DNA of 64,000 bases, taken from the NCBI GenBank assembly GCA_000004695.1, contig CM000150.2, forward strand, positions 3,584,001 to 3,648,000, written 5' to 3'. A program made the translations under genes and the position numbers. A model generated the notes under the pieces. It did no database searches, was not told the DNA's origin, and was given only the letters and a program-made list of their open reading frames with translations. This document shows, piece by piece, positions 15,076 to 42,695 of this stretch. Position 1 is the stretch's first letter; each line of letters starts with the position of its first letter. The stretch comes from Dictyostelium discoideum. Lineage: Eukaryota.

Positions 15076-15414
15076 AAATAGCCTTTTTGTGAAAAAAAAA
15101 GAAAAAAAAAAATCTAAAATTGGATCATTGAAAAAATAAAATAAAAAACGAACGAAAATTTTTTTTTAATCGTTTTTAGATGATTTTTCCACTCCTTTTA
15201 TTATTGAATCTTTTTGAACATTTTTCTACCGCTTGGTTTTTTTTTTTTTTACAAAGCTTTGCTAGTTTTTATTTTTTTTTTACACTTTTTAGCTTTGCAT
15301 CTTTAAAACTTTAAAATACGTTTTGGAAAATACTATATTTTTTTTTTTCAATCAACCACACTCTTTTTTTTTTTTTTTTTAAAAAAAATAATCATATTGA
15401 AATTAAAAAAAAAA

Positions 15415-17250: not shown

Positions 17251-17336
<86 letters not shown>

Positions 17337-20300: not shown

Positions 20301-23300
20301 ACAAGTGGTAAATTCTATAATTATTTCAAATCATCAGAATCATACTCAACAGTTAAAACACTTGCAAAATATATTACTCCAAAGAATCCATGTATTTATG
20401 ATAATAAAAGAGTAAAGAATTCATTAGATTACCTTTTCGAAATCAATTCAGATATTTTCCATTTAATTGAACTTTCAATTTCATCAAAAATCAGTTATCC
20501 AGATTCACCATATGAAACTTATTTCTATGAATCATCAAGCAACCCAGAGTATGGTCTTTCAATTATTACATTTGATTCAGCAATTTGTAGCTTTACAGAA
20601 TCAACTATTCAAGACTACCAAAGTGGAAAAGTATTACAATCATGTTCAATCATTCCAATTATAAATCAAGTAATTAATCCAACAACAACACTTCAAGCAC
20701 CATATCAATATTCACTTACAATTATTGGTAGATTATTTGATAGTTCAACTAGAATATTTTTATCAGGTTATGAATGTCCAATCATTGGTAATATTATTAC
20801 AAATCAAAATGATTATATTCAAACTCTTAGTTGTTCAGTACCATCAGAAATCAAATCATACTCGGCCTCTCCAATTAGTTTTTACAATGGTTATAGTGAA
20901 AATAATATATATAATTTCTTGTTGGATTTTAAAAAATCATTCTTTTTTATATATCCAATTTCAACAGTAACTCAAATTCAATACCCATCAAGTGGTCCAA
21001 TTCAAATGAATTCTGAAATTAAAGTAATTGGTTTTAATTTCTTCCCATATGGTATTACAAATCCAAGCATTCAAGTTTTTATTGATGATCTTGAATTAAC
21101 AGGTACTATCTTTGGATTAACAAGCATAAATGGAGTTGATTCATTTTCATTTATTGCTTCTGGTTTAGGTTCTTTAAAGTATGTAAAAAAAAAAAAAAAA
21201 TTAAAAAAAAAATTAAATTATTAATATTTAAAATATATTTTTTTCAAAGTTACATTCAATTATTTTATAGTGATAGTTTACCAATGATTATAAACGATGA
21301 TATTAATTTAGAATTTTCATTTGAAAGACCAATTGTTAATAGTATATTACCAACAAATGGAGATTACAATACAAAGGTTACAATTAATGGTAATAATTTT
21401 AGAAAAGGTCAATCAGTAAAAATTGGAGACATATTAGTAAATGATATTGAATTCATTTCAAATCAAAAGATTATTGTTTCAGCACCATTTGGATTTATTA
21501 ATGGACTTGTAGTTGTTTATTCAGATGATCAATACAGTTTAGAAGAAATATCATTTAGTTATCCTTCACCAATTATAGACCAAGTCATTCTTTCAAATTA
21601 TGAATCAAAATTAAACACAACAGGTACAAATTATTTCACAGTAATAGGTAGAGGTTTAGGTACATACATTGCAGAACAAGTCGATATTATTATTAACCAA
21701 GAGTTTTATGCAAGTTGCGAATTCGATTTCTGTGAAAGTTTAGAAATTATTGAAGATATAGATATAAAAGATCAAGGAATTTGTCAATATTTAAAATATA
21801 AAAATTATCAATATATCGATGAAAACTTTGATATATTAAATTGTATTTTAGCTGATTCGATTGGTAAAGATAAATCAATCAGTATCAAAATTTCAGAATT
21901 CCAAAACCAAACTTTCACCTACTCTTATTATGAACCATGGATTGAAAAATTAACACAAAACTCTTCATCAGCAACAACTGATGGTGGTGAAGTTATCGTT
22001 ATAAATGGTTACAACTTTTTACCATTCGAAAATTTAAGTCCATACTATGAAAACAATGAAACTATTGCACAATGGTTAAATCAATCAGAAATATTAATTG
22101 GTGAAAGCTATCTTTGTCAATCAATTAATTGGACCAATTCCTATGAATTAAATTGTACAATCCCACCGGGAATTGGTGTTAATCATACAATCATTGTAAA
22201 AGTAGGCCTTCAATCATCAAATCATACTGATTATTTGTATTCTTACGATCCACCAAAACTTGATACAATCAATAATTCCACCAAAAATGAGACACATTAC
22301 TATTCTTCAACAGATGGTAACAATGAAATTATAATAACAGGTAATAACTTTATTCCAAAAGAGTTATCAGATCATTACAACCAGAATGAAAATAAAACTA
22401 TAAATTCAATACTATTAGGTAAACAATATTGTAATGAAACTATTTGGATTAATTCAACAATAGTTAAATGTAAACCATTAGCAGGTATTGGGTCAAATTA
22501 CAAAATAAACATTAAAGTTGGTAATCAAAATTCAAATGAAACCATTTACTTCTCATATGAGAAGCCAATTTTAGATTTAAAGAATTACACAGGTTCAACA
22601 AATGGTAATACTGAAATTACAATAACAGGTATCAACTTTATTCCAAAAGAATTAGCAGATAATAATAATTTCAATCAATCAGAGAACTATATAATGATTG
22701 GTGATAATAAATGTAATGAAACTATTTGGATCAATTCAACAACAGTTAAATGTAAACCAATATCAGGTACTGGTACCAATCATAGAGTTATCATAACAGT
22801 TGGTAATCAAAACTCAAATGAAACGGTCTACTTTTCATATGATAAACCAATTTTAGATATTAAAAACTATAGTAGTCCAACTGATGGCAATACTGAAATC
22901 ACAATTACAGGTGAAAACTTTATTGAAAATTATAATCAAGAAAAACATAATGAAAATGATAATTTCGTTAGAATCGGTGAAAATAAATGTAATGAAACAA
23001 AGTGGATAAATTCGACAACAATTAAATGTAAATTAATTCAAGGTATTGGTTTAGATTATAAAATAGTTGTAACAGTCGCCAATCAACAATCAAATGAAAA
23101 TGTTTTCTTTTCATATGAAAAACCAATGATTGATAGTAAAACACTATTAGCATCAACCAGTGGTAGTGAAACTATTAAAATTACAGGTACCAATTTCATT
23201 CCATCAACTTTAGTAGAACATTACAACAAAGAAGAAAATAAAGATAACTCAATAAATTCAGTTACTATCAATAACGAGTTTTGTAATGATATTACATGGA

Positions 23301-25732
23301 TTAACTCAACAGAACTAACATGTAAACCATTAGCAGGAGTTGGAACTAATCATACTATATTCATTTTGGTTGGAACTCAAAAATCAAATCAAGTAAAATC
23401 ATTCTCATATAAACCTCCAAAGATTGAAGAGTTTAAATACTACACAGCACCAACACATTCCAATAAAATTATTACTATAACTGGTGAAAACTTTATTCCA
23501 ATCGAATTATTATCAAAAGACAACAGCAATAGTTCAGTACTCATTGATAATATAAAATGTGAAGAAATCAAATGGATTGATTCTACAAAAGTTTCATGTC
23601 AAGTTCCAGTAGGTCAAGGTAAAGATTTATCGATTAAAGTTAAAATTGAAAATCAAGAAACTGAAGAAAATCAACAATTTTCATATGATAAACCATTTAT
23701 TCAATCAATCAATCCAAATAAAGGAAGATGTAATCAAGAAGTATTAATTACAATTCAAGGTGATAGTTTTGGAAAGAGTGATCAACTAATTAAAATTGGT
23801 AATAACGAATGTCAAGATATTCAATTCTATCCAAATCATACATTTACATGTAAAGTTCCAATCGTGGAGAATTCAATTAAATCCATTGTTTTATTAAATG
23901 TTGGAAATCAAGATTCAAACGATAACATTACATATAAATACTATGGACCACCAGAAATTAAAAGTATTGGTTTACCATCATATCTTTCATTCAAAGGTGA
24001 TGATTTAATAACAATCATTGGTAATAACTTTATAGAATATGATGATGGATCTGATGAAATTGTTGTTAAATTTAATAATGAACCAACAGCTATCATTGAA
24101 AAAACAGAAACATCTATTAAAATTAAAACTCTTAGTGGTGATGAATTTAATTTACCAATTGCTGTAGAATTAAATGGTCAAATAAGTAATATCGATACTT
24201 CATTCGTTTACTCAAATCCAATAATTGAAAGTGTAACACCATCATCAAGTAGCTCAAAATCAAATACTCATATCACCATTAAAGGACATAATCTTGGATA
24301 TTCAACAAACACTCCCAAAATTACAATTGGAAGTAGTAATTGTTTAAATATCAATACTATATCTCCAAATGAAGTTCGTTGTATAGTGTTGAAATCAAGC
24401 GCAGGCACTAAACAATTAACATTAACCTATGAAAGTTATCAACCAACCTATTCACAATTCACTCACAAAAACGATGATGACAGTGATAGCCACGATGATG
24501 ATGATGATAAAGACAATAATGGACCAAAAGATACCATAATAAGTATTATCGGAAGTGCAATTGGAGCAGCAGTATCAGCAGCCATAAGTGGACTAATAAC
24601 AAGCATTTTCATTGGTGGAACATCAGTAGCCACAGCAGCAGCAACAACAACAGCAACAGGTACCGCGATTGCAACAGCAACTACAGCGTCAACAGCAACA
24701 GCTATTGCCAGTGCAACGACCGAAGGTGTTGCAGTAGTCTTTACAAGGGTATCAGTAATAGCAGCAACAGCAGGTGGTGTTGTTATTACTGCAATTGTAA
24801 CAGCAACAGTCATCCTTATTTCAGGTGGAAGTACACCATCACCAACTCCAACTATAACTCCAACTATTTCACCAACTCCAACACCAACCGATAACTATTG
24901 GGTAAGATGTATGGTCGATTATTCAAGATTAACTTTACAAGTCGATAATCTTTACGGTCAAGATATAGTATGTATTGATGGTAATGGAATTTCATCAATT
25001 TTCAACGAATCATTCTCTTGTAAACCTGATCTTATTAACGATAGTATGATATGCACTCAACAACATCAAGATGGAACAAATTCAACAACCACATTTGGTA
25101 ATTCAACATTAATTTGTCATATTGACTCAACAAAATCATGTGAAATTTCACCACCATTCATTATACCATCCGATCCAATTGAAGATGATGAATATTCAAA
25201 TATTTTAGAATGTCAATATAATCTCATTGAAAATTCATTATCAACACACTCTAATAATAGTCCATTAAGATGTTATAATAATGAAACTGAAAATTACTTC
25301 ACTATGAATACTACACTTTCATGCTCAAAAGATGAATCATTAAGTCAAGATAACAATACGATTTCTTGTTTAGCAGATACAGATGATACTCAAATCTTTT
25401 TCTTTAAGAACTCAATTACATGCATTACAGATTATCCATACTATAAATGTACAATGAAATCTGAACCATCACAAGATGATAACATAATTCCAGAACCAAC
25501 ATTACCACCAACTCCATCAATTGATGATGATTCCACATGTATTTATGATTCAGCCAATCCATATTCAATAGATCTCCAACCAACGATTGGAACTAATGTC
25601 AAATGTCCAACAAATGAAAAAGAACTTCATTATGATCTTTCAACTTATCTAACATGCACAGATAATACCACCCATAAAAACTCCACTTATTCAGTTTCAT
25701 ATTCAACTTATGTTTGCATTAAAACAAAATAA
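15415..25732 (+). CDS. Giant secreted/membrane glycoprotein, copy B, about 3,200 aa: signal peptide, 4 P-type-lectin (MRH, CI-MPR-like) domains, at least 15 IPT/TIG repeats, Asp/His stretch, Ala/Thr/Gly hydrophobic region, Pro/Thr linker, Cys-rich C-terminal domain. Exons 15415..16049, 16234..16710, 16796..17232, 17372..17426, 17570..20065, 20145..21178, 21271..25732
   Basis: All seven exon junctions have GT..AG boundaries and the phases reconcile (2-2, 2-2, 2-2, 0, 0, 2). The ORF-track pieces 15397..16053, 16430..16714, 16880..17236, 17615..20077, 20919..21224 and 21284..25732 all join into one frame. Each lectin exon ends in YDL(T/S)P(M/L/I) and contains Cys pairs plus Y-x-(I/V)-x-(I/V)-x-T-K-Y-(A/V)-C. 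This resembles the CI-MPR repeat signatures (YDLSxL, FxWxTxxAC), from my recall. The motif IT(I/V)xGxNF(I/L) recurs as in IPT/TIG domains. NxS/T sites are abundant. Confidence 0.6.
17262..17337. repeat. (AAT)n microsatellite inside intron 3 of giant gene B
   Basis: Perfect trinucleotide run visible in the sequence. Confidence 0.9.
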
Positions 25733-26345
25733 AAACAATTAAAATAATTTTTAAAAAAAAATAAAAAATAAAATGAGATAATGGTTTTATCAATAATTTA
25801 ATTTGATACAAAATTCATTTTTAGTGTTTTTACATGTATAACATTTTAATTATTGTTTACTAATATTAATATTAATTATTCCTCTGAATATTTCTAATTA
25901 ATTTTAATTTTTTGAATAAAAAAACTAAATTAACCTTTTTGTAACATTCAAGAGGTCAAGTTATAGCTAACTATCCAATTAATACTTTATTAATAGTAAT
26001 AGTAAAGGTAAAAGAAAAATTAAAAATGAAATAGAAAAACTAGAAAAAGATAAACAGGATGAAATTAAAAATTAAAAAAATGATAAATTCAATGGTTTAA
26101 ATCAAAAAGAATAATTAGAAAATCTGGCTACAGTAATTCAATTATGGCAACCATCTTCATATTTTCAAGCTTCATTTTTTTATTTGATTAACCATTAAAA
26201 AATAATTAAATGTGAAAATAAATGTGATATTTATTTTAAAATAGAATTTTTTTTTTTTTATTTCTTAATGCACCATTTGGTTTTATCGAATTTTGAAAAC
26301 TAAAAAATTTTATTTTTGGAATTAGTTAAATTTTAAAAAATTAAA

Positions 26346-28888
26346 TTAAAATAAAATATATTTAATACTTACATCTTTGGTATATTCACCCAAAACTTTT
26401 CTAAACTCTTCAATGGAATCGATATTTTGTAGATCACCATGTTTATTTTCTGTTAAGAGAATACAATAGATAAGATGATCTTGGCAATCCGGATGATAAT
26501 TAATGATTTTTGAATCTGTATCACTTGGATAAGCTTTACATATTTTTTTATTAATTTCATTATAATCCTTATCATCATGACCTTCTTCGCTATCACTTTG
26601 ATCGCCTTCTTTTGGGAATTTAAATTTTTCTAAATCTTCTATATTGACTTCTTTCAATTGAATGATGTTTTCATTTTTTTTAAAATTCAATTTTTCATAG
26701 AGTTCTTTAACTGAATTCACAGTTTTTAAATCGATATATATCTTGTCTGGGAAAGGTGTGACTGTTGATGTTGGTACAACAATTGTATTTTCTGTTTCAT
26801 CTTTTACACTTTTATCTTTTTTTAAAGTAACTGTTAATGTTGATTCAACATAGATATCTTTATACAATTGGTAAGATTTGGACTTTTCAAAGCTACAAGT
26901 GACATCATTATCATCACATAAAATAATTTCCCCATTGATTGATGGAAACACATTGAAATCAAAAAACTCTGATTTGTATTTATTTGTTGTAGTTTGATCC
27001 TTAAGTTGGGTTAATAGTGGAATATAAACATTGTCATAACCATAATTATATTCATTTGAAAATAATTTATCTTCATCTTTTTCATTATTGTAAACGATAA
27101 TAAATGGATTCAAATGATAGTATTTTTCATCATCTCCATAACCTTTAACCTTGGTTTCAAAGTCTAGCTTTCTGTTACCTAAAATTTCTTTGAGACTATT
27201 TGGATATTTAGTTATTAATCCGTTTAAATTCAACTTTTGACCTGCAATGCTATTTAATCTTAATGATTCTTTTTTAAGATATTGATTATTCTCTGGGTGT
27301 CTAATTATACCAACTCTTCTGTAAAAGTATTCAGAAAGATATTTCATTTTATCACTACAAAAAGCACCACCTCCACGTGCCTCTTGCTTTCCTTGCCAAT
27401 TTAAATCACCAAAGCAAATAGTCCCACCACCGCCACCACTATCTACTTTATCTATATTATTGAATTGATAAGAAATTTTTGAATGGTCACTTCCTGAATC
27501 AGCACTAATAACTTTTGACCAAGGTGTTTCGAATCTGTAAGAAAGATAAATTGATTCAACTGCTTGAGAAATTGCATTTTCACCTTTTGTAATCTTTGTT
27601 TGAGTATGGACCATTGTTTTAAAATTATTACCATTTTTAAAATTATCTATATAATGCCAAATTATAAAAAATTTAATTTTTTCCTTGTGAGTTTCTTCAA
27701 TTTTTTCATTATACTTTTTATAAAGGTTTTTATTTGTTGTTTGAATGAAGTATCTCCCTTTATCACTTTCATAAATTTTATTATAGTGAACATTTGATTC
27801 AAGAGGATTTAGAGTCGGGTTTGATGATGTAATTTCTTGGTTTAGAATTAATTCTGCCTATTTTTTAAGAATATTAGTTTGGTAATTTAAAAACACAATT
27901 TTAAAAATATAAATTTCTTACCAATTGTGACCATTTATTTAAATAAATAACTCCGTTCCATATATCAGGTTCATTTCCAACAATAATATGGTCCTTCATT
28001 AGGTTATCCAATTCAATAAAAGTTTTGGGAGGTTCAATTTTACTATTAATTGTTTCCAAATTAATGACATTTTGGTTCTTACGGTCAAGCTCAGTTTTGA
28101 GGTATTCTGAATAAGAATTGGCTGATGATACCCTTTTTACCTTTTTAAAAACTGTATTAATGGTCCGAATATTTAAATTACTATAAATAATATACTTTGG
28201 AATAATATGAAGTTCTTCTTTTGACAAAGTTATACAAATTGAATGTTGAGCATGTTGATTATTTAAAGTATGTTTGTCGTAATTAAAAAGAGGTTCATAT
28301 CCTGTTTCTGGAGATCTTGGAACACTGTGAATTACATGAATTCCCCCATTTTCATTCCAAATGAAAAATCCTTTTGCATGTGCCTTTTTTTAGATAAATA
28401 AAAAAAATAAAAAAAAAATAAAAATATTAGAAAACTATTAACAACAAATAATAATCAAAAAAAAAAAAAAAAAAAAAAAAAAAGATAAAATAATTAACAC
28501 AAACACTATCATCACCATTACTGGGTTGATCATTATAAGACAAACTATTAAATAAAATAGCACCAGATTCATTTGGTATACTCTGTTTGTATGTTGATGT
28601 AATCGGGTTTGGTTTTGTTGTATTTGGATCTCTAATATTAAAATCAACTATTTCATTAATCTCTGAATTCATTTCTTTTAATGTGCTATCAGTATAAATA
28701 GCACCTTTACTGTGACTCAATTGCTCTAAAAACCACCATTCCACATTCTTTTCTTTAGAATCTCCATCTCCAAATACCTGACTATCCTTGTAAACATTTT
28801 TTGTTGTTTTACATTTTGGAGGATCACTACAATAAATCTGTGATATTATTACAAATAAATATAAAAATATTATATATCTATTTCTCAT
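26346..28888 (-). CDS. DNase II-family secreted protein, copy C; exons 28888..28505, 28383..27922, 27857..26346
   Basis: Same structure as copies A and B: MRNRYIIFLYLFVIISQIYC; AHAKGFFIWNENGGIHVIHSVP; DHSKISYQF...ICFGDLNWQGKQEARGGGAFC. Exon 2 is the most diverged and is 27 nt shorter than in B. The C-terminal extension is closely similar to B. Confidence 0.7.
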
Positions 28889-28944
28889 GTTATTATTTTT
28901 GTTTTATTTATTTTAATATAAAAAAAAAAAATTATTTATATATA

Positions 28945-29015
28945 AAAAAAAAAAGAGTACAGTTGAGAAAAAAAAAAGAGTACAGTTGAGAAAAAAAAAA
29001 GAGTACAGTTGAGAA
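28945..29015. repeat. Three tandem units of a 25-bp motif, aaaaaaaaagagtacagttgagaaa
   Basis: Direct tandem repeat visible in the sequence, immediately upstream of DNase II-C on the divergent side. Confidence 0.85.
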
Positions 29016-29524
29016 AAAAAAAAAAAATTACAATCGATTTGCATCAAAATCAAAATTTTAATCTTAAAAAAAAACAAAAAATTATTTTCCTAATGTTTTT
29101 TTGATTTTAAAGAGATAATTTTTCTTTCTTTTTTTTTCAAAATGCAAACTAAAAAAATTTTCGTTTGTTTTTTTTTTTTTTATATCACAAAATATCGAAC
29201 GGGCACGAGCAAAAAAAAAGCAAGGAGGTGTCTCGAAAAAAAAAATTGTGTTGAGAAATGCAACAATTTTTTTTATTGGTACCCATTACTTCATTAGCAT
29301 CAAGTCCACTTCTCCATACGATAAAAAAAAAAAAAAAAAAAAAAAAAAGGGATCGCTAATTTTTAAAAGAGAAAAAAGTGTTGTTGCTCCACTAAAAAAA
29401 TAAATATATTTTTTTTTTAGAAAAAGATGGTACTTGTTTTGTGAATGAAAATTTTTTTTTTTCTTTTTTTTTTTTTATTTTTTTTTTTTTTTATTTTTTT
29501 TTTTTTGATCATTTTTTTTTAACA

Positions 29525-31579
29525 ATGGAAATAAACTTTTGGAAATTTTATAGAAACAAATATTTGAATAAAATTATATATTCAAATTTTGAATTTTCAA
29601 ATATTTATTCATATGATAGATTATATAATGTTTCAGAAATTTTATCTAAATATACAAATGGTATTGAAATTTTAAAAGATAAAGTCAAAAATAATCAATA
29701 TTTATTTTTTGAAATTAAAATTACAGGTATTATTAGAGAAACATTCCCAAATTTGATCTTAGAGCTAATTAAAAAGGATGAACTATTTTATAATCAATTA
29801 TTTGGTAATAATGAATATTATTCAAAAAACTTTAATCTTAATGAATTATTTATTAAAATTATTCAATCATCAAATTTAGTAGCATTAAAATCATTTATCA
29901 AATTAATATATAAAAAAAACAAAAATAAAATTAATAAATTTAATGATAATTTTAAAGTTTTTAATTATAAAAGTTTAAAAATGTTGAAATATATAATAAC
30001 GATTGGTGGTGATAAACTATTAAAGAATTTAGAATATGGTGATATAGAATTGTTTAATAACTCTTTTAAATTAAAACATTTAATTGAAATTTTAAAATTT
30101 TCTTCACAAACAATGTCAAGCAATAATCAAATAAACAAAGAAATATTAGAATCTAATTTATTTACAAATCAATTAAAAAAATTGTCAATTAATGAAATTT
30201 TAGAAGAATATTCATCAATTTTAAATAATAACCAACAACCAGAAATTAAATTTAAAATATTAGAACTAATTAATTTATTTTATTTAATAATTAATAAAAA
30301 TGAAAATGAAAAACCATTAAATTATTATATTTTATTTAAAAATGAAAATGAAATTGAAAATAAAATTTATCAAGATTATCAACAACAAGAACCGCAACAA
30401 AGACAGTATGGATGTTTTTTTAATTTATTTAAATATAAATCTGAGAAATTAAATCAACTAATTTCAAATTTATTAAAAAGGATTGAACTAAATCCAAATT
30501 CAAATGAAACTACAAGTAAAAGACAAGAGATTGAATATTTAATTAATTCATTTATTTTATCAAGTAATAATATTGAATTGTTAGATAAAGTTATTAAAGA
30601 AAACAATTCAATAAATTTTTATGAAAAATATAAATCAATTACATTTTCAAGAATACTATCAATTGAAATTTTAAATTATTTTTTTGAAAATTATCAAGAT
30701 TTATTTTTTAATGATTTAAATTTGAATTGGGTTAATATTGAATCAATTAAAGTATTTAAACATTATAAATTATTAATGAAAAGTTTAAATAGAAATTTAT
30801 CAATTATCATTAATGATAGTAATCATCAAATTGAATTAATACCAAATCAATTTAAAACAGTTTCAACAAATTTTAAAAAACCAGGTGAATTATTTTTAGA
30901 TTTATTATTAAATTATAATAATAATCATCTTAAAGAAATACCTAATTTGGATTTATTTAAGGAATTAATATATAATTCATTAAATTATTATAATAAGCAA
31001 GATTCATTTATTGAAATTTTAAAAACATTTAAAATTAAATCATCTTCTTTTGATTTTTCATTAATTGAAAATGAAAATCATAATAATTATAAAATTATTA
31101 AATGGTTATTTTCAAAAACACCAACAACATTTAATGAATTTAAAAATTCAAAAAAGGAAATTATAATTAACCAAAATTTAAAAATTAATTCAATTAATAA
31201 TGAACAATTATTTATTTCATTATTTAAAATTGGTTATTATAAAAAAATATTTCAATTATTAGATAATAATCAAATTTCAAGAATGAATATAATTAATTTT
31301 CATTTTCCTGGTAATTCAATAGATACAAAATATTATATTAAATATATTACAGTTGAATATATTGATTATTTATTTAATTTTATTTTTAATAAAAAAATTG
31401 AAATTATGCAGCTTGGTTGTCATTCTAAAAAATTTAATTGGGAAACCTTTATAAATGAAATAATGAGAAATGGTGATTTATTAATTTTTAAACATTTAAT
31501 TAAAAATTATGGTGGTTCATTTATTATTAATTCTCAATTATTTAATTTGGAATTTAAAGAATTTTATAAAAATAAATAA
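29525..31579 (+). CDS. Hypothetical Asn/Lys/Ile-rich protein of about 685 aa (ORF track 29441..31579; likely start MEINFWKFY at about 29525); unknown function
   Basis: A 2.1-kb uninterrupted ORF in a genome where TAA stops are frequent by chance. It has no counterpart in the intergenic spacers of copies A or B. No motif recognised. Confidence 0.5.
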   Translation: MEINFWKFYRNKYLNKIIYSNFEFSNIYSYDRLYNVSEILSKYTNGIEILKDKVKNNQYLFFEIKITGIIRETFPNLILELIKKDELFYNQLFGNNEYYSKNFNLNELFIKIIQSSNLVALKSFIKLIYKKNKNKINKFNDNFKVFNYKSLKMLKYIITIGGDKLLKNLEYGDIELFNNSFKLKHLIEILKFSSQTMSSNNQINKEILESNLFTNQLKKLSINEILEEYSSILNNNQQPEIKFKILELINLFYLIINKNENEKPLNYYILFKNENEIENKIYQDYQQQEPQQRQYGCFFNLFKYKSEKLNQLISNLLKRIELNPNSNETTSKRQEIEYLINSFILSSNNIELLDKVIKENNSINFYEKYKSITFSRILSIEILNYFFENYQDLFFNDLNLNWVNIESIKVFKHYKLLMKSLNRNLSIIINDSNHQIELIPNQFKTVSTNFKKPGELFLDLLLNYNNNHLKEIPNLDLFKELIYNSLNYYNKQDSFIEILKTFKIKSSSFDFSLIENENHNNYKIIKWLFSKTPTTFNEFKNSKKEIIINQNLKINSINNEQLFISLFKIGYYKKIFQLLDNNQISRMNIINFHFPGNSIDTKYYIKYITVEYIDYLFNFIFNKKIEIMQLGCHSKKFNWETFINEIMRNGDLLIFKHLIKNYGGSFIINSQLFNLEFKEFYKNK

Positions 31580-31753
31580 AAATAAAAAAAACTAATAATT
31601 TAAAAAAAAAAAAAAAAAACTTAAATCAATTGACAAATATAACCCAATTAGAATGAAGTTAAGGAAAATTTTTAAAAATGGAAATTGCTTTTTTTTTTTT
31701 TTTTTTTTTTAATTTTATTTTAATTTTTTAACATCCAACAGTCTTAAAAATTT

Positions 31754-32036
31754 TTTTATAGAAAATTACGAGTATGTCGTAATAAAAACTAAAAAACATC
31801 AAAATTATTTTTTTTTTTTAGATGCGATCATTTGTTGATGTTGGAAATCTTTTTTTCATTTTCGAAATGGTTTTTCTGTGAAAATAAAAAAAAAAAAAAA
31901 AAAATCCAACTCAGAAACCTTTTCTTATTGGCGAGTTTAAAAAAAAAAAACTGCCAAACGATCGCATCTAAAAAAAAAAGATAAGTTTGATGTTTTTTAG
32001 TTTTTATTACGACATACTCGTAATTTTCTATAAAAA
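31754..32036. repeat. Inverted repeat: roughly 77-bp arms (outer 47 bp perfect) around a roughly 130-bp spacer; foldback/MITE-like element or inverted duplication of the promoter-proximal motif
   Basis: 31756..31802 'tatagaaaattacgagtatgtcgtaataaaaactaaaaaacatcaaa' is exactly reverse-complementary to 31990..32036. The inner parts, ...tagatgcgatc at 31819..31829 and gatcgcatcta at 31960..31970, are also complementary. The element ends about 110 bp upstream of the giant gene C ATG. Confidence 0.8.
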
Positions 32037-32146
32037 AATTTTGATAAAAATCTTACTATTATTTTTTTTTTTTTTTTTTTTTTTAAAAATAAAAGAGAAT
32101 TAATTGTTTATGAAAAATTACGTTGTAAAAAAAAAAAAAAAAAAAA

Positions 32147-35100
32147 ATGGTAAAATTTAAAATAGTGATATCATTTTTATTATTTATTATATATTGTAAT
32201 TGTTTCACATTTGGTAGCTACCCATTTGATACAAAAAATTGGTCAACAAATGGTACACTATCATCATGTGTTTTTTATGATTTTGTAAATAACGATTATT
32301 ATGATTTAAGTTCTATTATCATACCTGATCATCAAGGTTCTCATAGAGCAAGTTTTGATGCAGAACTTTCTGGTGGAATTCAAACATCTTATTTAATGTA
32401 TTTCAATCCTTGTTTTAATGATCATATGTGTCCAGGTGGTCTTTCAGTAGGTTGTATTGCTATTTTTCAAAATTCGCAAACAATATATAATTCTGTTGGT
32501 TCACTTTCAGAACCACATTTTGTTACATATAGAACAAACGGTATTACTATTAAATATCAATCAACTCTTTTACCATCAACAACATGTGCCTCTAATGGTA
32601 ACCGTAGAACTTTGATTTTAGTTATTACTTGTGATCCAATTCAACAATTTTCAGTAACAAGTACTAATAACAGAAGAGTATTATGTGAACATACAATTAA
32701 TATCGCTTCAAGACTAGTATGTAAAAATAAAGGAGTATTATTTAATCAAGGTCTATTTTATGATTTAACACCAATGAAATTGTAAGTTATTAAATTCTTT
32801 TTCATATTTTTAATTATCCATTTTTTTATTTTTATTTTTTATTTTTATTTTTATTTTTATTTCCCACTTTTTTCAATTCATTTTTTTTAATTTTTTTTTT
32901 TTTTTTTAATTTTTTTTTTTTCCAATAGATTAACAAGCACTTCACACCAAATCACCAATGATGACCAAACAAAAGATATTCTCTTTAATTTATTCGGAAA
33001 TGTAAATAGATGTGGTACTTTCGGTACATCAACATTAAGTTATCAATCATGTATTTTAACAGTTGCTAATAAAGCGATCATTATAAACTAGATTCAAGAT
33101 ATGCAACATCACCAAAATCAGTTATGGTAGGATCTCTCAGTCAACCAAGAACAATTACATTTACAAATGATGTAATAACTATACTTTATAGTTCAACAAC
33201 TGGTTTCACAGAATGCTCATTAAACGGTAACAAATATTCATCAAAGTATATTTTAATTTGTGATCCATTCACAGAATATTATGTAGATAAATTTACATTA
33301 GAATCACAATGTATTTATCAAATAAAAGTTTATACCAAATACGCATGTCCAACATTACGTTTATTCAAACGACAAATACAATATTATGACCTTTCACCAT
33401 TGATGTTGTAAGTATTAAATTTAGTTTTTTAATATTTTATTTATCGTGCCCCTCCTCTAAATAATTAACAATTCGGTAAATCTATATATATAGAGATTCA
33501 ACAAGAAATTATACTGCAAGTTATAGTACAGGAGAAATTATATTTAATATTGGTAATAGAGCACAAATTTGTAACGAACCCTTGAATGGTACAATTTTTC
33601 ATTTTGCTTGTCAATACGATCCAATCAATAGAGTATACAATCAAATCGCTCAAGCAAGTTTAGGTCAAAAGGTAACATATGATTTAAATCAAATTAAATT
33701 TGAATACTCTTCAAGACTAACAACTAGTTGCTCATCAAATTCCAATAAAAGAAATTTTATTATTGTTTTAAATTGTGACGAAAATCAACATTACCAATTG
33801 GTTTCAACTATTGAATCTCCTGCATGTGTATATACAGTAACAATTAAAACTAAATATGTATGCGAATCAACAATTTATTTTAATGCATTTAACTATACCT
33901 ATTATGATATTACTCCAATAAAAACGTAAGTTTAAAGTAATAATAACTAGGTAATAATAGTAAAAATAATATTGATTTTTATTAACAAACACAATATATC
34001 AAACTATTAATTTTAATTAGAACAAAAGATAGTCCAAAAACAGTGGATATCACTGTCAGTGGAGTCACAAATAGAGTAAGAATTTAACTTTTAAAAAAAA
34101 AAACTAAAACTAAAACTAACATATTTATTTATTATTTTTTTAAATAGCTTTATTATGGTATAGGTAATACTGTTAACTTTTGTACAAATCAAGCTACAGC
34201 AGTTCCTGGTGTAGATTATCAAGCTTGCCAATATATCAATGGTGTTGTTATTCATGTTGGTAGTTTAAAAAATACTTCTATATATATTGGTGATAGTAAT
34301 GATATATATATCGCTCATACATCAGTAACTGATTCAACTAGACCACCATGTAGAGGTAAATATCAAAGGGCTGACATTTTAAGTATGACATGTGATCCAA
34401 CGGCTACATACACTTTTGTCAGTGCCAAAGAGGTTTCTTCTAACGGGGGATGTCATTATTATATTTACATTAAAACCAAATATGCATGCCCAATTAATTA
34501 TGCACCAGTATTGCCAGCTGTTGGAAATCCATGTTTATACAGTTGTACACCACCAGGTGCTTTAAATACAAAAGATATAGTTAGTGTACTTTTAAATTTA
34601 GGCGTTTGTTTTTCAGAGATTAATAAATATGGTACAGGTGCTCAATCATTACTTGGTATATTCAACAATACTTGGGTTTTAAACCACAATGGATATGATG
34701 ATTGGATGGGTGGACAACTTTATTCACTATTATTAACAGGTAAACCACAAACATCGATTTCACCATATGTTATTTCAATTACACATGATAATTTATGTAC
34801 ATATGGTACCAATGGGTTAAGTAAAGCAAAAAATTCAATCAATGATTTTCTCACTATCACAAATGATCTTCTTGAAATTTCAAATCGTGCAGCCAGTTCA
34901 ACCGTTACCAAATATACATATTCAGATGGAGCAATTACATTATCAACACATAAACTTTTATCAACATCAACTGGAGGTCTTGCAATTATTATGTATAAAG
35001 GCTTGCTATGCCATTACTCAGTGGTTTCAAATATTCAAACTTTAGTTATTTCGAATTATTTGCTTTCATGTCCATATTATTCACTACCAATTACATTGTA

Positions 35101-38100
35101 TAGTTTAGCACCATCAACTGCGAAAATCGGAGATACTATTACAATTAATGGTGAAAATCTAGATAAAGACAACTATGATGTTTATTTTAAAATCATTCAA
35201 GATTCATATTCTGAAGTCAAAGCAACAATAACATCAAGAACAGCAAATACTGTAAAAGTAATCGTTCCAAAAGGTTTTGGTGGTGCCTTTGTTCTCACTC
35301 AAAATAGAATCAATAAGTTAATCTCTAATAATCTTGAATTTTCATACCCATCATCAACCATTGTCAAAGTAATTAGTCAACCATTTAGTACAGGTATCAT
35401 CAATAGATTCTTTGTCATTGGTGAATATTATCGTTCATTAATAACCAATATCACCATTTATCCATACATCGATAATATTGAAAAAGAAGCAATTTATTGT
35501 GAAATTGAAAAGTATTGTCCAAGTTCATCAAAAATTCCATCAATTCCAGGATCAGAAGTAGGTCATCCATGTATTGATTCAACAGTTTACTCTGAGAATG
35601 CCCAGTTTTTCAATTATTCCAAGTATGATGTTTTTGTTTGTATCAAATCATCATTAGGTGTTGGAAGTGGTATCATTAAATTCCCATCACAAACATTTAC
35701 ATTCGCATACTCTTATAAAGCACCTCTCTTATATTATGCACCACCTGGCGCTCGTATTCCAACTGATGGTGGTAGTTTTCAATTGAGTGGCAAAAACTTT
35801 CCACCAACACAAGAAATCATTGATCTCGGTTTGAACACATCTAAAATCATTTGGAATAATGATAATTTTGTTACATTCAAAGGAACAAATCTTACAAATA
35901 CCAACATCAATTGGAAGAGTTCAGATACGATTGTATTTATTGCGCCACCAGGTTTTGGTGAGTGGATCACCGTTTCAGTAACTGTCGGTAAACAAGCGTC
36001 AACAACTACATACCCAGGTGATTTAGATGAACGTCCAACTGGAAATTATACTTTGCATTATCTATTTCCAACAATTGTTGATTTATCAGCAGTTCCAACT
36101 GATGGTGGTGAAACTATAATAAAAGGTGCCAACTTTATTCCAGCTATCTTTGTAGGTCAAATTAATAATCAATCATTAATTGGTTCGCTACATTCAGTCA
36201 CGTTTAATAATGTTTTATCTCCATCATGGACATGGATTAACTCAACACACGTAAAAGCCATCGTACAAAAAGGTATTGGTACAATCTCTCCAATGGTAAG
36301 AGTTGGTGGTCAAAGATCAGATTTGTACCAACTTTTTGCAACATTATACAAAAAACCTGAATTAGATAATAAAAAATATGAAAACTTTGCAAATAGTAAT
36401 ATTTTAATAACTGGCTCTAATTTTGTACCAGTTGGTGTTTCAGCAGGTTCATCAAGTTCTGTTAAAATTGGAGGTATTCCTTGTAACTCTGTAACATGGG
36501 TAGATTCAAAATCTGTTATTTGTAATGTACCAATTGGAACTGGTGATAATTTAAATATCCAAGTAACAGTTGGAGATCAACAAACCGAATTAAATGATTA
36601 TTTCTCATATTTAGGGCAATGCGATTTCCTCTGTAGCGATTTATCAAATTTAGTAAGTTTTTAAACATTTTAATTACAGAGAAAAAAAGAAAAAAAAAAC
36701 TAAAAAATACTAATATATTATCATTTTTACCTCAAAGGAATTAGAAAAAGTTATTAGAGAGAATAAAAAAGATTTAAAGAGTACTCTTTTATTAACAGGC
36801 GTATGTTTAGAACAAATCAAGCAATATAATCTTACATATATTAAAAATAAAATTGAATCAAGTTGGATTGGAAATTCAATTATTAATGATTGGACAAGTG
36901 GTAAATTCTATAACTATTTCAAATCATCAGAATCATACTCAACAGTTAAAACACTTGCAAAATATATTACTCCAAAGAATCCATGTATTTATGATAATAA
37001 AAGAGTAAAGAATTCATTAGATTACCTTTTCGAAATCAATTCAGATATTTTCCATTTAATTGAACTTTCAATTTCATCAAAAATCAGTTATCCAGATTCG
37101 CCATATCAAACTTATTTCTATAAATCATCAAGTAACCCACAGTATGGTCTTTCAATTATTACATTTGATTCAGCAATTTGTAGCTTTACAGAATCAACTA
37201 TTCAAGACTACCAAAGTGGAAAAGTATTACAATCATGTTCAATCATTCCAATTATAAATCAAGTAATTAATCCAACAACAACACTTCAAGCACCATATCA
37301 ATATTCACTTACAATTATTGGTAGATTATTTGATAGTTCAACTAGAATATTTTTATCAGGTTATGAATGTCCAATCATTGGTAATATTGTTACAAATCAA
37401 AATGATTATATTCAAACTCTTAGTTGTTCAGTACCATCAGAAATCAAATCATACTCAGCCTCTCCAATTAGTTTTTACAATGGTTATAGTGAAAATAATA
37501 TATATAATTTCTTGTTGGATTTTAAAAAATCATTCTTTTTTATATATCCAATTTCAACAGTAACTCAAATTCAATACCCATCAAGTGGTCCAATTCAAAT
37601 GAATTCTGAAATTAAAGTAATTGGTTTTAATTTCTTCCCATATGGTATTACAAATCCAAACCTTAAAGTTTTTATTGATGATCTTGAATTAACTGATACT
37701 ATCTTTGGATTAACAAGCATAAATGGAGTTGATTCATTTTCATTTATTGCTTCTGGTTTAGGTTCTTTAAAGTATGTAAAAAAAAAAAAAATTAAAAAAA
37801 AAATTAAATTAAATTATTAATATATAAATTTCTTTTTAAAAGTTACATTCAATTATTTTATAGTAATAGTTTACCAATGATTATAAAAAATGGTGTTAAA
37901 TTAGAATTTTCATTTGAAAGACCAATTATTAATAGTATATTACCAACAAATGGAGATTACAATACAAAAGTTACAATTAATGGTAATAATTTTAGAAAAG
38001 GTCAATCAGTAAAAATTGGAGACTTATTAGTAAATGATATTGAATTCATTTCAAATCAAAAGATTATTGTTTCAGCACCATTTGGATTTATTAATGGACT

Positions 38101-41100
38101 TGTAGTTGTTTATTCAGATGATCAATACAGTTTAGAAGAAATATCATTTAGTTATCCTTCACCAATTATAGACCAAGTCATTCTTTCAAATTATGAATCA
38201 AAATTAAACACAACAGGTACAAATTATTTCACAGTAATAGGTAGAGGTTTAGGTACATACATTGCAGAACAAGTCGATATTATTATTAACCAAGAGTTTT
38301 ATGCAAGTTGCGAATTCGATTTCTGTGAAAGTTTAGAAATTATTGAAGATATAGATATAAAAGATCAAGGAATTTGTCAATATTTAAAATATAAAAATTA
38401 TCAATATATCAATGAAAACTTTGATATATTAAATTGTATTTTAGCTGATTCAATTGGTAAAGATAAATCAATCAGTATCAAAATTTCAGAATTCCAAAAC
38501 CAAACTTTCACCTACTCTTATTATGAACCATGGATTGAAAAACTAACACAAAACTCTTCATCAGCAACAACTGATGGTGGTGAAGTAATCGTTATAAATG
38601 GTTACAACTTTTTACCATTCGAAAATTTAAGTCCATACTATGAAAACAATGAAACTATTGCACAATGGTTAAATCAATCAGAAATATTAATTGGTGAAAG
38701 CTATCTTTGTCAATCAATTAATTGGACCAATTCCTATGAATTAAATTGTACAATCCCACCGGGAATTGGTGTTAATCATACAATCATTGTAAAAGTAGGC
38801 CTTCAATCATCAAATCATACTGATTATTTGTATTCTTACAATCCACCAAAACTTGATACAATCAATAATTCCACCAAAAATGAGACACATTACTATTCTT
38901 CAACAGATGGTAACAATGAAATTATAATAACAGGTAATAACTTTATTCCAAAAGAGTTATCAGATCATTACAACCAGAATGAAAATAAAACTATAAATTC
39001 AATACTATTAGGTAAACAATATTGTAATGAAACTATTTGGATTAATTCAACAATAGTTAAATGTAAACCATTAGCAGGTATTGGGTCAAATTACAAAATA
39101 ATCATTAAAGTTGGCAATCAAAATTCAAACGAAACCGTTTACTTCTCATATGAGAAGCCAATTTTAGATTTAAAGAATTACACAGGTTCAACAAATGGTA
39201 ATACTGAAATTACAATAACAGGTATCAACTTTATTCCAAAACAATTAGCAGATAATAATAATTTCAATCAATCAGAGAACTATATAATGATTGGTGATAA
39301 TAAATGTAATGGAATTATTTGGATCAATTCAAGAACAGTTAAATGTAAACCAATATCAGGTACTGGTACCAATCATAGAGTTATCATAACAGTTGGTAAT
39401 CAAAACTCAAATGAAACGGTCTACTTTTCATATGATAAACCAATTTTAGATATTAAAAACTATAGTAGTCCAACTGATGGCAATACTGAAATCACAATAA
39501 CAGGTGAAAACTTTATCCAAAACTATAATCAAGAAAAACATAATGAAAATGATAATTTCGTTAGAATCGGTGAAAATAAATGTAATGAAACAAAGTGGAT
39601 AAATTCGACAACAATTAAATGTAAAATAATTCAAGGTATTGGTTTAGATTATAAAATAGTTGTAACAGTCGCCAATCAACAATCAAATGAAAATGTTTTC
39701 TTTTCATATGAAAAACCAATGATTGACAGTAAAACACTATTAGCATCAACCAGTGGCAGTGAAACTATTAAAATTACAGGTACCAATTTCATTCCATCAA
39801 TTTTAGTAGAACATTACAACAATATAAAAAATAAAAATAACTCAATAAATTCAGTTACTATCAATAACGAGTTTTGTAATGATATTGCATGGATTAACTC
39901 AACAGAACTAACATGTAAACCATTAGCAGGAGTTGGAACTAATCATACCATATTCATTTTAGTTGGAACTCAAAAATCAAATCAAGTAAAATCATTCTCA
40001 TATAAACCTCCAAAGATTGAAGAGTTTAAATACTACACAGCACCAACACATTCCAATAAAATTATTACTATAACTGGTGAAAACTTTATTCCAATCGAAT
40101 TATTATCAAAAGACAACAGCAATAGTTCAGTACTTATTGATAATATAAAATGTGAAGAAATCAAATGGATTGATTCTACAAAAGTTTCATGTCAAGTTCC
40201 AGTAGGTCAAGGTAAAGATTTATCGATTAAAGTTAAAATTGAAAATCAAGAAACTGAAGAAAATCAACAATTTTCATATGATAAACCATTTATTCAATCA
40301 ATCAATCCAAATAAAGGAAGATGTAATCAAGAAGTATTAATTACAATTCAAGGTGATAGTTTTGGAAAGAGTGATCAACTAATTAAAATTGGTAATAACG
40401 AATGTCAAGATATTCAATTCTATCCAAATCATACATTTACATGTAAAGTTCCAATCGTGGAGAATTCAATTAAATCCATTGTTTTATTAAATGTTGGAAA
40501 TCAAGATTCAAACGATAACATTACATATAAATACTATGGACCACCAGAAATTAAAAGTATTGGTTTACCATCATATCTTTCATTCAAAGGTGATGATTTA
40601 ATAACAATCATTGGTAATAACTTTATAGAATATGATGATGGATCTGATGAAATTGTTGTTAAATTTAATAATGAACCAACAGCTATCATTGAAAAAACAG
40701 AAACATCTATTAAAATTAAAACTCTTAGTGGTGATGAATTTAATTTACCAATTGCTGTAGAATTAAATGGTCAAATAAGTAATATCGATACTTCATTCGT
40801 TTACTCAAATCCAATAATTGAAAGTGTAACACCATCATCAAGTAGCTCAAAATCAAATACTCATATCATCATTAAAGGACATAATCTTGGATACTTAACA
40901 AACACTCCCAAAATTACAATTGGAAGTAGCAATTGTTTAAATATCAATACTATATCTCCAAATGAAGTTCGTTGTATAGTGTTGAAATCAAGCGCAGGCG
41001 CCAAACAATTAACATTAACCTATAAAAGTTATCAACCAACCTATTCACAATTCACTCATGATGATGACAGTGATAGCCACGATGACAGTGGAAGCCATGA

Positions 41101-42352
41101 TCATAATGATCCTAATGGACCAAAAGATACTATAATAGGTATTATCGGAAGTGCAATTGGAGTATCAGTATCAGGAGTCTTGGCTGGATTAATACCAACT
41201 ATTTTCGGTAATGGAACATCAGTAGCCACTACGGCCGCAACAACAAGGGCGGTAGATACAGCGGTAGCGGCAGCAACTACAGCAGCAACAGCAACAGCCA
41301 TTGCCAGTGCAACGATCGAAGGTGTTGCTGTAGTCGTTACAAGGGTATCAGTAATAGCAGCAACAGCAGGTGGTGTTATCGTTACTGCAATTGTAACAGC
41401 AACAGCCATTCTTATTTCAGGTGGAAGTACACCATCACCAACCCCAACCATAACTCCAACCATAACTCCAACCATAACTCCAACTATTTCACCAACTCCA
41501 ACACCAACCGATAACTATTGGGTAAGATGTATGGTCGATTATTCAAGATTAGCTTTACAAGTCGATAATCTTTACGGTCAAGATATAGTATGTATTGATG
41601 GTAATGGAATTTCATCAATTTTCAACGAATCATTCTCTTGTAAACCTGATCTTATTAACGATGGTATGATATGTGCTCAACAACATCAAGATGGAACAAA
41701 TTCAACAACCACATTTGGTAATTCAACATTAATTTGTCATATTGACCCAACAAAATCATGTGAAATTTCACCACCATTCATCATACCATCCGATCCAATT
41801 GAAGATGATGAATATTCAAATATTTTAGAATGTCAATATAATCTCATTGAAAATTCATTATCAACACACTCTAATAATAGTCCATTAAGATGTTATAATA
41901 ATGAAACTGAAAATTACTTCATTATGAATACTACACTTTCATGCTCAAAAGATGAATCATTAAGTCAAGATAAAGATACGATTTCTTGTTTATCAGATAC
42001 AGATGATACTCAAATCTTTTTCTTTAAGAACTCAATTACATGCATTACAGATTATCCATACTATAAATGTACAATGAAATCTCAATCATCACCAGATGAT
42101 AACATAATTCCAGAACCAACATTACCACCAACTCCATCAATTGATGATGATTCCACATGTATTTATGATTCAGCCAATCCATATTCAATAGATCTCCAAC
42201 CAACAACTGGAACTAATGTCAAATGTCCAACAAATGAAAAAGAACTTCATTATGATCTTTCAACTTATCTAACATGCACGGATAATATCACCCATAAAAA
42301 CTCCACCTATTCAATTTCTTACTCAACTTATGTTTGTATTAAAACTAAATAA
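32147..42352 (+). CDS. Giant MRH-lectin/IPT-TIG glycoprotein, copy C; exons 32147..32781, 32929..33407, 33494..33925, 34021..34075, 34148..36652, 36738..37771, 37864..42352. Exon 2 carries a 1-bp deletion, so this copy may be a pseudogene or require exon skipping
   Basis: Same seven-exon structure and splice phases as copy B. Exon 2 lacks a G between 33079 and 33080 (gcgatcattat versus gcgatcgattat in copies A and B). This gives an in-frame TAG in the B-like frame, and ORF 33124..33411 is in the shifted frame. Exons 3 and 5 N-terminal lectin regions are diverged from B. Exons 6 and 7 are near-identical to B apart from a longer Pro/Thr linker (3 extra TPTI units) and a variant Asp/His stretch. 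Confidence 0.5.
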
Positions 42353-42489
42353 ATAAAATATAAATAAATATAATCTTTTATCATTAAACGTATGGAAGGA
42401 TCTTCCTTCCTTAAATTTCAATAAATTATTATTTTTTTTTTTTTTTTTTTTATGTTTAGATATTATTTATTTTATATATTTAATATTGT

Positions 42490-42695
42490 AATCTTTTACA
42501 TATAATGATTCAGATGCTGAACCAGTTTATTCCTCACCAGTGCATTTGCCGAATTGAGCAAGAGAGTTACACTTGGCACGATGTAAATAAACTTACGAGC
42601 AGCTTCAACGTTGGCAGATTCACCTTTCCAAGTGAAGGGTACGAACGTTGAATTCACCGTTCGTACCAATTGTTCAGAGGTGAGCAAATTTGGAA
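42490..42695. other. GC-rich roughly 200-bp island in AT-rich intergenic DNA with a perfect 10-bp hairpin; candidate ncRNA or relic gene fragment
   Basis: ggtacgaacg-ttgaattcac-cgttcgtacc at about 42631..42660 forms a 10-bp stem. The ORF-track minus-strand ORF 42496..42687 (63 aa) has non-Dictyostelium-like composition. No family recognised. Confidence 0.3.

Follow-up and report, generated by a model that had tools for sequence, protein, structure and literature searches.

Copy C of a tandem family of giant genes on Dictyostelium discoideum chromosome 1 is probably a null allele, or nascent pseudogene, produced by a genuine and recent 1-bp deletion in exon 2 of an AX4-type lineage, with exon 2 still spliced into the transcript in the normal manner. 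The window, which is the whole 64,000-nucleotide stretch of this chromosome that was analysed, contains three tandem copies (A, B, and C) of this gene of about 3,200 aa. Its architecture comprises four P-type-lectin (MRH/CI-MPR-like) modules with many IPT/TIG repeats after them, the encoded protein appears to be of a giant, cell-surface type, and a DNase II-like gene lies close to each copy. Copy B (positions 15415 to 25732, forward strand; exon 2 at 16234-16710) is the intact paralog with a 3,198-aa product, and copy A (5174 to 11487, forward strand; exon 2 at 5949-6421) is an old pseudogene.

The gene models are anchored by two exact matches, with the copy B model being identical to the AX4 protein XP_002649199.1 (UniProt C7FZW8) and the copy C ortholog of a diverged isolate (L001) being identical to the annotated protein P0001. 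All exons of copy C lie on the forward strand. Exon 1 (32147-32781, 635 nt) ends with two extra bases; its product runs from a signal-peptide-like N-terminus through MRH unit 1 into the first strand of unit 2. Exon 2 (32929-33407), which has phase-2 introns on both sides, supplies the greater part of MRH unit 2 together with the opening strand of unit 3; it measures 479 nt in the window (480 nt if intact), 477 nt in copy B, and 480 nt in the C ortholog of the diverged isolate. Exon 3 (33494-33925, 432 nt) is phase 2 on both sides, encodes MRH unit 3, and has a length of 438 or 432 nt across the copies. It is followed by a 55-nt mini-exon (34021-34075) leading from phase 2 to phase 0, and by exons 5-7 (34148-36652, 36738-37771, and 37843 or 37864 to 42352), which cover MRH unit 4 and the IPT/TIG repeat array through to a hydrophobic Cys-rich C-terminus, and which contain no further stops or frameshifts. 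The introns of the gene span 71-184 nt. The mini-exon is conserved and lies between exons 3 and 4 of the initial annotation, which did not include it. A copy B model joining exon 3 straight to a "tattacAG" acceptor was rejected in favour of the mini-exon, as that site is missing in copies A and C.

Sequence comparison confirmed the earlier observation that copy C lacks one G relative to copies A and B. The base is missing between 33079 and 33080 on the forward strand, from the GAT (Asp) codon of ...ANKAIDYKL..., where copy C reads GCGATCATTATAAACTAG at 33074-33091 and copies A (6093-6111) and B (16379-16397) read GCGATCGATTATAAACTAG. The premature TAG had been placed 26 codons downstream, which is wrong: it is found in frame at 33089-33091 on the forward strand, inside the string quoted at the time, 3 codons past the deletion and as the fourth codon after ATC (...A-N-K-A-I-I-I-N-stop), leaving a product of 265 aa as the sequence stands. 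Apart from the missing G, the first 245 nt of exon 2 are identical in copies B and C. The 9.65-kb coding sequence of copy C carries this single lesion and is open elsewhere; restoring one G gives an ORF of 3,216 aa, and the shifted frame contains 186 stops. Copy A, which had served as a clean reference alongside copy B, fails in that role, since its exon 2 carries its own 1-bp deletion at 6003/6004 with a TAA 7 codons on, and the copy has further deletions of about 17 bp in exon 1 and of 11 bp, 16 bp, about 475 bp, and about 3.1 kb. These lesions of copy A are the ones that the model of the annotated protein P0002 works around.

The deletion in copy C is real and not a sequencing artefact, because the independently assembled genome of a near-identical isolate (GCA_054883475.1, L003:13550) has the same deletion at a site, ATC[G]ATT, that is not a homopolymer. 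Over the approximately 60 kb compared, its only differences from the window are shortened A/T homopolymers and 4-5 single-base substitutions. In the C ortholog of the diverged isolate (L001:4173) the G is present, as it is in copies A and B, and exon 2 is open; strain ACTFIW has an annotated length of 3,213 aa for its last copy. Judged from these genomes, the deletion appears to be specific to an AX4-type lineage. The two assemblies with the deletion represent almost identical strains; they establish the lesion in that lineage and do not speak to its spread beyond it. A true genome with the G, obscured by a sequencing or assembly error or by cross-paralog mis-assembly, is very unlikely. In favour of an error, one absent base would be the smallest slip possible, and the AT-rich genome and the 84-98% identity of the tandem paralogs make the locus hard to assemble. 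Against it, the identical deletion recurs in the second assembly, whose systematically shorter homopolymers point to a different technology and which has a few true SNPs; the C-specific variants around the site also speak against a collapse of copy A or B.

The locus was fetched from other assemblies using as anchor a single-exon, DDB_G0295763-like gene (684 aa; 29525-31579, forward strand) located between the nuclease gene and copy C. Orthologs of this anchor were found in AX4 and ACTFIR only, and the DNase II search for the locus in ACTFIW and ACTFIY yielded only distant paralogs. The absence of AX4 among the homology-search matches is uninformative, as the giant proteins themselves were not returned. 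A literature search with the gene IDs of the locus found nothing.

Selection on the last exon (1,483 codons) bears on the age of the lesion. The changes specific to copy C of the window have a nonsynonymous-to-synonymous (N:S) ratio of 14:14, compared to 30:39 in the intact orthologs and about 3.5:1 under neutrality (P=0.0012), so the last exon of copy C gives no sign of relaxed constraint. Had the branch been wholly neutral, the remaining 9.2 kb should have gathered about 8-21 more disabling mutations; 0 are seen. Since copy C has no other lesion and its last exon shows purifying selection, the frameshift is recent; the estimate confines it to at most the final 15-39% of a branch whose dS is about 0.015. 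Unrelaxed constraint of this kind fits only a very recent lesion or a gene that is still in use. The open and formerly constrained remainder of the gene is also what continued function through a bypass would predict. Inside exon 2, the changes specific to the window copy have an N:S ratio of 4:1 against 0:7 in L001 (Fisher p=0.01), which we did not accept as evidence of relaxed constraint, because at least one of the "derived" changes (Gly to Val in TNDVITI) is common to the paralogs DDB_G0270480 and ACTFIY_000540; this change is variation within the family that gene conversion has moved. The N:S contrast between exon 2 and the other exons of copy C is not significant (p=0.62).

Assuming that normal splicing keeps exon 2 in the copy C transcript, translation would end at the TAG and release a 265-aa fragment. 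This would comprise the signal peptide, MRH unit 1, and a third of unit 2; the remaining MRH units, the whole IPT/TIG array, and the membrane-anchor region would be missing. We infer both the normal splicing and the resulting loss of function from the sequence. The suggestion in the initial annotation of a very young pseudogene is well supported by the single lesion, the second assembly, the intact ortholog, and the unrelaxed last exon. Its pairing with an intact nuclease is true but uninformative: the DNase II-like gene upstream of copy C (26349-28903, reverse strand) has three open exon segments, and among its counterparts at 11853-14551 (copy B) and 2312-4843 (copy A), the one beside the long-dead copy A is just as open.

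The other proposal made for copy C was an exon-skipped variant, for which the arithmetic is correct. Exon 1 does end with two extra bases and introns 1-3 are all phase 2, so that joining exon 1 to exon 3 across the phase-2 introns 1 and 2 keeps the frame and gives a single open ORF of 3,056 aa with three MRH modules. Each exon also encodes the rest of one unit and the first strand of the next (YYDL[ST]P motif), meaning that a direct join of exon 1 to exon 3 would yield a whole, chimeric MRH unit; the downstream 9.2 kb are open and record past purifying selection; and unit 2 is odd, with a 15-aa insertion, a Tyr for a conserved Arg, and no Pfam match, and might be dispensable. However, positive evidence is absent, and the splice sites, relatives, and annotations are all against it. 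The exon-2 splice sites of copy C are as good as those of copy B (GTAAGT donors and T-rich ..AG acceptors), the deletion sits 150 nt past the acceptor and 328 nt ahead of the donor, the flanking introns of 147 and 86 nt indicate an intron-definition architecture, and skipping would create a 712-nt intron, far outside the intron range of the gene. Exon 2 is kept by all intact relatives (copy B, DDB_G0270480, ACTFIY_000540, and ACTFIR_009687) and is also contained in ACTFIT_007970, and exact look-ups of the exon-2-skipped products (3,056 and 3,049 aa) found neither in the public protein collection. Amoebozoans have low levels of exon skipping, with the enrichment for frame-preserving skipping being an animal feature (PMC6142364), and the constraint signal is explained equally by a very recent lesion. 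The symmetry of the phase-2 exons goes back to the origin of the four MRH modules by tandem exon duplication and is not evidence of regulated skipping. We therefore consider it highly improbable that copy C is functional through constitutive or nonsense-associated skipping of exon 2, and we would hardly expect that a premature stop in a symmetric module exon triggers or tolerates such skipping and that copy C persists as a functional three-MRH-module variant. If it were true, an amoebozoan, from a group in which skipping is otherwise rare, would offer a natural case of a modular protein reshaped by nonsense-associated, frame-preserving exon loss.

Least probable of all is some other rescue of the frame or repurposing of the gene, by a cryptic short intron over the lesion, by -1 ribosomal frameshifting, or by use of the 265-aa product as a secreted single-MRH protein. 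A GT..AG interval of 41 nt (33051-33091) covers both the deletion and the TAG, and its removal would restore an ORF of 3,195 aa, the exact length annotated for copy C in GCA_054883475.1, but it is far shorter than the real introns of the gene, has an exon-like composition (73% AT versus 78-94%) and a poor GTATTT donor, and its exact product is missing from the public collection. As the model behind that annotation, the 41-nt pseudo-intron was likewise set aside, with the length fitting and the exact sequence not being in the collection. The annotation of a 3,195-aa product for copy C indicates that the pipeline bridged the frameshift. For -1 frameshifting, a direct reading of 33062-33091 found no X XXY YYZ slippery heptamer ahead of the TAG. 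The truncated product would have a signal peptide and one complete MRH unit, in keeping with repurposing, but the exact 265-aa sequence is missing from the public collection. Two further routes were rejected: reinitiation would lose the signal peptide, and readthrough would leave the frame unrestored.

A young null allele fits the dynamics of the family. Along the gene, dS between copies B and C ranges from 0 to 0.5 and is 0 around the deletion, and exon 2 is 97.7% identical between the two copies, with the flanking introns at 68-73%, forming a gene-conversion mosaic. Copy C is deleted outright in D. cf. discoideum, with a remnant of about 200 nt left in ACTFIY. The tandem family is best read as turning over by duplication, gene conversion, and decay (birth-and-death), and a freshly dead copy, as copy C most likely is, is ordinary for a family with such fast turnover. 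As it stands, copy C is a routine case of a probable recent inactivation within a tandem multigene family, and of real interest in itself only if its transcripts skip exon 2. The series formed by intact B, apparently freshly broken C, long-dead A, and the deleted C of D. cf. discoideum is a tidy set in which gene conversion and gene decay in Dictyostelium can be followed. A probable null allele is hidden in public gene models, which read across the frameshift. AX4-type strains probably have one functional MRH-IPT/TIG copy fewer than some wild isolates, a difference to be taken into account in knockout and redundancy studies.

The MRH unit profile matches CI-MPR with an E value of 2e-45 and also the MRH domains of GII-beta, ERLEC1, and OS-9. 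The AF2 model of unit 2 (pLDDT 78.8) has CI-MPR and CD-MPR as top Foldseek matches (TMq 0.57-0.66), and the units are predicted to adopt the flattened beta-barrel fold of MRH/P-type lectins. Unit 3 passes the Pfam family PRKCSH_1 (PF13015) with 27.9 bits at a cutoff of 23; units 1, 2, and 4, scanned singly, gave no significant Pfam match. The conserved sugar-binding residues of MPR/MRH domains are Gln, Arg, Glu, and Tyr. By alignment column, the Arg of units 1, 3, and 4 (NRR, NKR, and YQR) is replaced in unit 2 by a Tyr (NKY), and an E-x-x-C-x-Y motif is present; sugar binding by the units is putative. The IPT/TIG domain (Pfam ID PF01833) matches the last exon of copy B in 10 stretches (E=3.5e-110) and exon 5 with an E value of 8.6e-26.

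The closest known proteins are C7FZW8 (copy B, "IPT/TIG domain-containing protein") and DDB_G0270480 (Q55EA6, "MRH domain-containing protein"), which belong to the same 90% cluster and share the architecture and exon structure of copy C; both are intact, whereas copy C has the exon-2 frameshift. The DDB_G0270480 knockout behaved as wild type in a dedifferentiation screen (PMC7190356). The units resemble those of the P-type lectin/MRH proteins CI-MPR, CD-MPR, glucosidase II beta, OS-9, and ERLEC1 by profile and predicted fold, but here they are fused to a long IPT/TIG array, and unit 2 stands apart by its additional 15-aa loop and by the Tyr in place of the conserved Arg. In animal nonsense-associated altered splicing and cassette exons, a symmetric 3n exon with a premature stop can likewise be removed in frame, whereas copy C has strong splice sites and short introns in an organism with rare exon skipping. 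The likeness to tgr, another Dictyostelium IPT/TIG family with documented polymorphic pseudogenisation, extends to tandem paralogs, mosaicism, and AX4 pseudogenes that are open in other strains (bioRxiv 10.1101/2025.10.22.684067), while the A/B/C family is much larger (about 3,200 aa), carries MRH modules, and is not annotated as tgr.

The window is AT-rich (about 25% GC) and its introns are short and bounded by GT..AG. Self-comparison of the window places the three tandem units at about 2576-11329 (A), 12123-25747 (B), and 26613-42367 (C). Matches to known proteins and contigs locate the window on chromosome 1 of Dictyostelium discoideum: the open reading frame (ORF) at 47591-49444 is identical to DDB_G0269802 of the reference strain AX4, and that at 29525-31579 is the gene DDB_G0295763. 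The spliced model for copy B has seven exons (15415-16049, 16234-16710, 16795-17232, 17372-17426, 17570-20065, 20145-21178, and 21250 or 21271 to 25732) and encodes 3,198 aa that match, residue for residue, the AX4 "IPT/TIG domain-containing protein" (XP_002649199.1; UniProt C7FZW8). Since an independently annotated protein (P0001, locus L001 from GCA_054859385.1) is also reproduced exactly, the gene model can be regarded as validated. The copy C exons lie at 32147-32781, 32929-33407, 33494-33925, 34021-34075, 34148-36652, 36738-37771, and 37843 (or 37864) to 42352. The fourth is a conserved 55-nt mini-exon (at about 7010-7064 in A), which is new relative to the gene described in the initial annotation; it leads from intron phase 2 to phase 0 and codes for the beginning of MRH unit 4 (TKDSPKTVDI...), and without it the junction of exons 3 and 5 fails in A and C. 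Intronic (TAA)n and (CTAAAA)n microsatellites (17250-17335 in B intron 3, 34095-34125 in C intron 4, and 5060-5130 and 5290-5350 in L001) are of very unequal length among paralogs and strains and explain much of the intron length variation.

The C-terminal two thirds of the giant protein consist of IPT/TIG repeats (PF01833, E=3.5e-110), and the N-terminal ~680 aa of four homologous units of about 150 aa each. In a profile search these units match the cation-independent mannose-6-phosphate receptor (CI-MPR; E=2e-45), with further matches to the MRH domains of glucosidase II beta, ERLEC1, and OS-9; unit 3 passes the Pfam MRH model PRKCSH_1, and unit 2 as modeled by AlphaFold (pLDDT 78.8) can be superposed on domains of CI-MPR and CD-MPR with a TM score of about 0.6. 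The earlier label "lectin module" is thus appropriate as a fold assignment, with sugar binding being putative. Unit 2 is atypical, having a tyrosine at the column where the other units share a conserved arginine, and a 15-residue insertion (ILTVANKAIDYKLDS), found in no other unit and predicted with low confidence, within which the copy C frameshift is located. Each exon encodes the remainder of unit n and the first strand, YYDL[ST]P, of unit n+1, which explains the identical intron phases; this layout is consistent with the units having arisen through tandem exon duplication.

Copy C has GCGATC-ATTATAAACTAG at 33074-33091, and the corresponding sequence is GCGATCGATTATAAACTAG in both A (6093-6111) and B (16379-16397), so that one G is missing from copy C between 33079 and 33080. 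In the frame set by the AX4 protein, the sequence continues ...A N K A I I I N stop, giving a 265-aa product; the premature TAG (33089-33091) lies 3 codons past the deletion and not 26, as had been stated. The unrepaired frame contains 186 stops, and adding one G restores a single 3,216-aa ORF, showing that copy C has exactly one lesion. Three loci of GCA_054883475.1 (L002, L003, and L004) together span the region and differ from the window, over about 60 kb compared, only by shorter noncoding A/T homopolymers and 4 to 5 single-base substitutions. The identical deletion is present there (L003:13550), at a site which is not a homopolymer, so that two independent assemblies of near-identical isolates agree that it is real. 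The copy C ortholog of the diverged isolate GCA_054859385.1 (L001) carries the G and is open throughout exon 2; its nucleotide identity to the window is about 94%, similar to the divergence in flanking single-copy DNA. The corresponding gene of strain ACTFIW is annotated at 3,213 aa. These comparisons indicate that the lesion is derived and lineage specific.

D. cf. discoideum (ACTFIY) retains only a 3' remnant of copy C, of about 200 nt (GCA_054859205.1, L006 2959-3453, against window 42158-42634). This remnant directly follows a DDB_G0295763-like gene, with an aldolase-family gene nearby; copy C has been deleted or rearranged in that lineage. The flanking single-copy DNA of ACTFIW and ACTFIR, both labeled D. 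discoideum, is about 90 to 96% identical to the window (L005, L007, and L006 flanks against 42900-64000), a divergence well beyond the ~0.3% that strains typically show among themselves (bioRxiv 10.1101/2025.10.22.684067), and these isolates may be members of a cryptic sister lineage. Their colinear alignment jumps from about 52100 to about 60100-60300, lacking a GC-richer block at about 55000-59900, where GC reaches 41%, both GC and AT skew are strong, and long ORFs lie on the minus strand. The matching region of L004 carries an annotated reverse transcriptase domain (PF00078), so the block is a retroelement insertion.

The initial annotation described copy C as either a very young pseudogene or an exon-skipped variant. 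The symmetric phases behind the latter are real: introns 1, 2, and 3 are all in phase 2, the length of exon 2 is 477 nt in B (480 nt in L001), and that of exon 3 is 438/432 nt. Copy C without exon 2 is indeed a single 3,056-aa ORF, and the skip would rebuild a complete chimeric MRH unit. However, both splice sites of the exon are as in B, with a consensus GTAAGT donor and a T-rich AG acceptor, the deletion is far from both splice sites, and skipping would turn flanking introns of 147 and 86 nt into one of 712 nt, where the gene's own range is 71 to 184 nt. Exon 2 is retained in all intact relatives, and the public protein collection has no match to the skipped product. In a 65-species survey, amoebozoan exon-skipping levels were comparatively low and enrichment of frame-preserving skipping was an animal feature (PMC6142364). 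The open downstream frame is equally well explained by the lesion being young, and we consider exon skipping very improbable.

A slippery heptamer was not found upstream of the copy C stop. The lesion could also be bridged if the 41-nt GT..AG interval 33051-33091 acted as an intron, whose removal gives a 3,195-aa ORF, exactly the length annotated for copy C in GCA_054883475.1 (L003:12623 onward). But the real introns of the gene are all far longer than this interval, which has exon-like composition and a poor donor, and whose exact product is absent from the public protein collection; it resembles the sort of workaround by which gene-finding software gets past a frameshift. Since the natural frame ends at residue 265, a near-full-length product means that the annotation pipeline must have bridged the frameshift, and the public model masks a probable null allele. 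Gene models differ also for a fourth paralog, DDB_G0270480, whose knockout showed a wild-type phenotype in one screen (PMC7190356): the AX4 model (P0013, 3,225 aa) translates part of intron 1 (…DLTPMKLTKHKIKKQKNLIFFHFFFFFFNFFIFIFFSHRLTSTS…), which a newer annotation (P0014, ACTFIT_007970, 3,197 aa) splices out, so that the reference proteome entry is probably misannotated.

A very young pseudogene is the best explanation, in view of the single lesion, the G in the ortholog, and the substitution pattern. The last exon (1,483 codons) was compared with B as the outgroup and the orthologs of ACTFIW and ACTFIR as sister sequences. It has 14 nonsynonymous and 14 synonymous changes specific to the window's copy C, indistinguishable from the 30:39 of the intact orthologs and far from the neutral expectation of 3.5:1 plus 5.6% stops (P=0.0012). 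Had copy C evolved neutrally along the entire branch (dS about 0.015), about 8 new stops would be expected in the other 9.2 kb, and about 21 disabling events once indels are counted; no further stop or disabling indel was seen there. Any time that copy C has spent as a pseudogene would therefore make up no more than about 15 to 39% of that short branch. An apparent relaxation of constraint in exon 2 of the window's copy C (nonsynonymous to synonymous 4:1 versus 0:7, p=0.01) does not hold up, with at least one variant being common to paralogs elsewhere and the contrast with the other copy C exons not being significant.

Between B (15415-25732) and C (32147-42352), dS in steps of 100 codons varies between 0 and about 0.5, and long near-identical stretches in exons 2, 6, and 7 lie beside diverged stretches and unalignable introns, a pattern indicating a strong gene conversion mosaic. 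In the 100 codons around the deletion dS is 0, and exon 2 is 97.7% identical, whereas its flanking introns are only 68 to 73% identical; the deletion thus arose after this tract was last converted.

Copy A had been taken as a clean comparator, which it is not. Its exon 2 (5949-6421) has its own 1-bp deletion at 6003/6004 (ATTCTC-TTAATT), followed by a TAA 7 codons later, so that exon 2 is frameshifted independently, at different sites, in two of the three tandem copies. Exon 1 has a deletion of about 17 bp, there are further frameshifting indels, and two large deletions remove about 475 bp and 3.1 kb. These lesions recur in another assembly, where the annotators modeled around them (P0002). 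Despite them, exon 2 of A is 95.8% identical to that of B, which suggests that gene conversion went on into the pseudogene copy. Each unit also carries a minus-strand DNase II-like gene (PF03265; 2312-4843, 11853-14551, and 26349-28903), and all three share the same three open exon segments. The pairing of copy C with an intact nuclease is therefore true but says nothing about the giant gene, being equally true beside the long-dead copy A. The annotated nuclease products, of about 782 to 804 aa, far exceed the 326-position Pfam DNase_II model, and only their N- and C-terminal parts match it, leaving a long surplus region.

Overall, the deletion and phase symmetry reported initially stand, and the stop position and the description of copy A are corrected. 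Copy C is quite likely a recent null allele, a nascent pseudogene, and as such an ordinary phenomenon. The tandem MRH-IPT/TIG family probably evolves through duplication, gene conversion, and decay, and a comparable pattern has been described for the Dictyostelium tgr IPT/TIG family (bioRxiv 10.1101/2025.10.22.684067).
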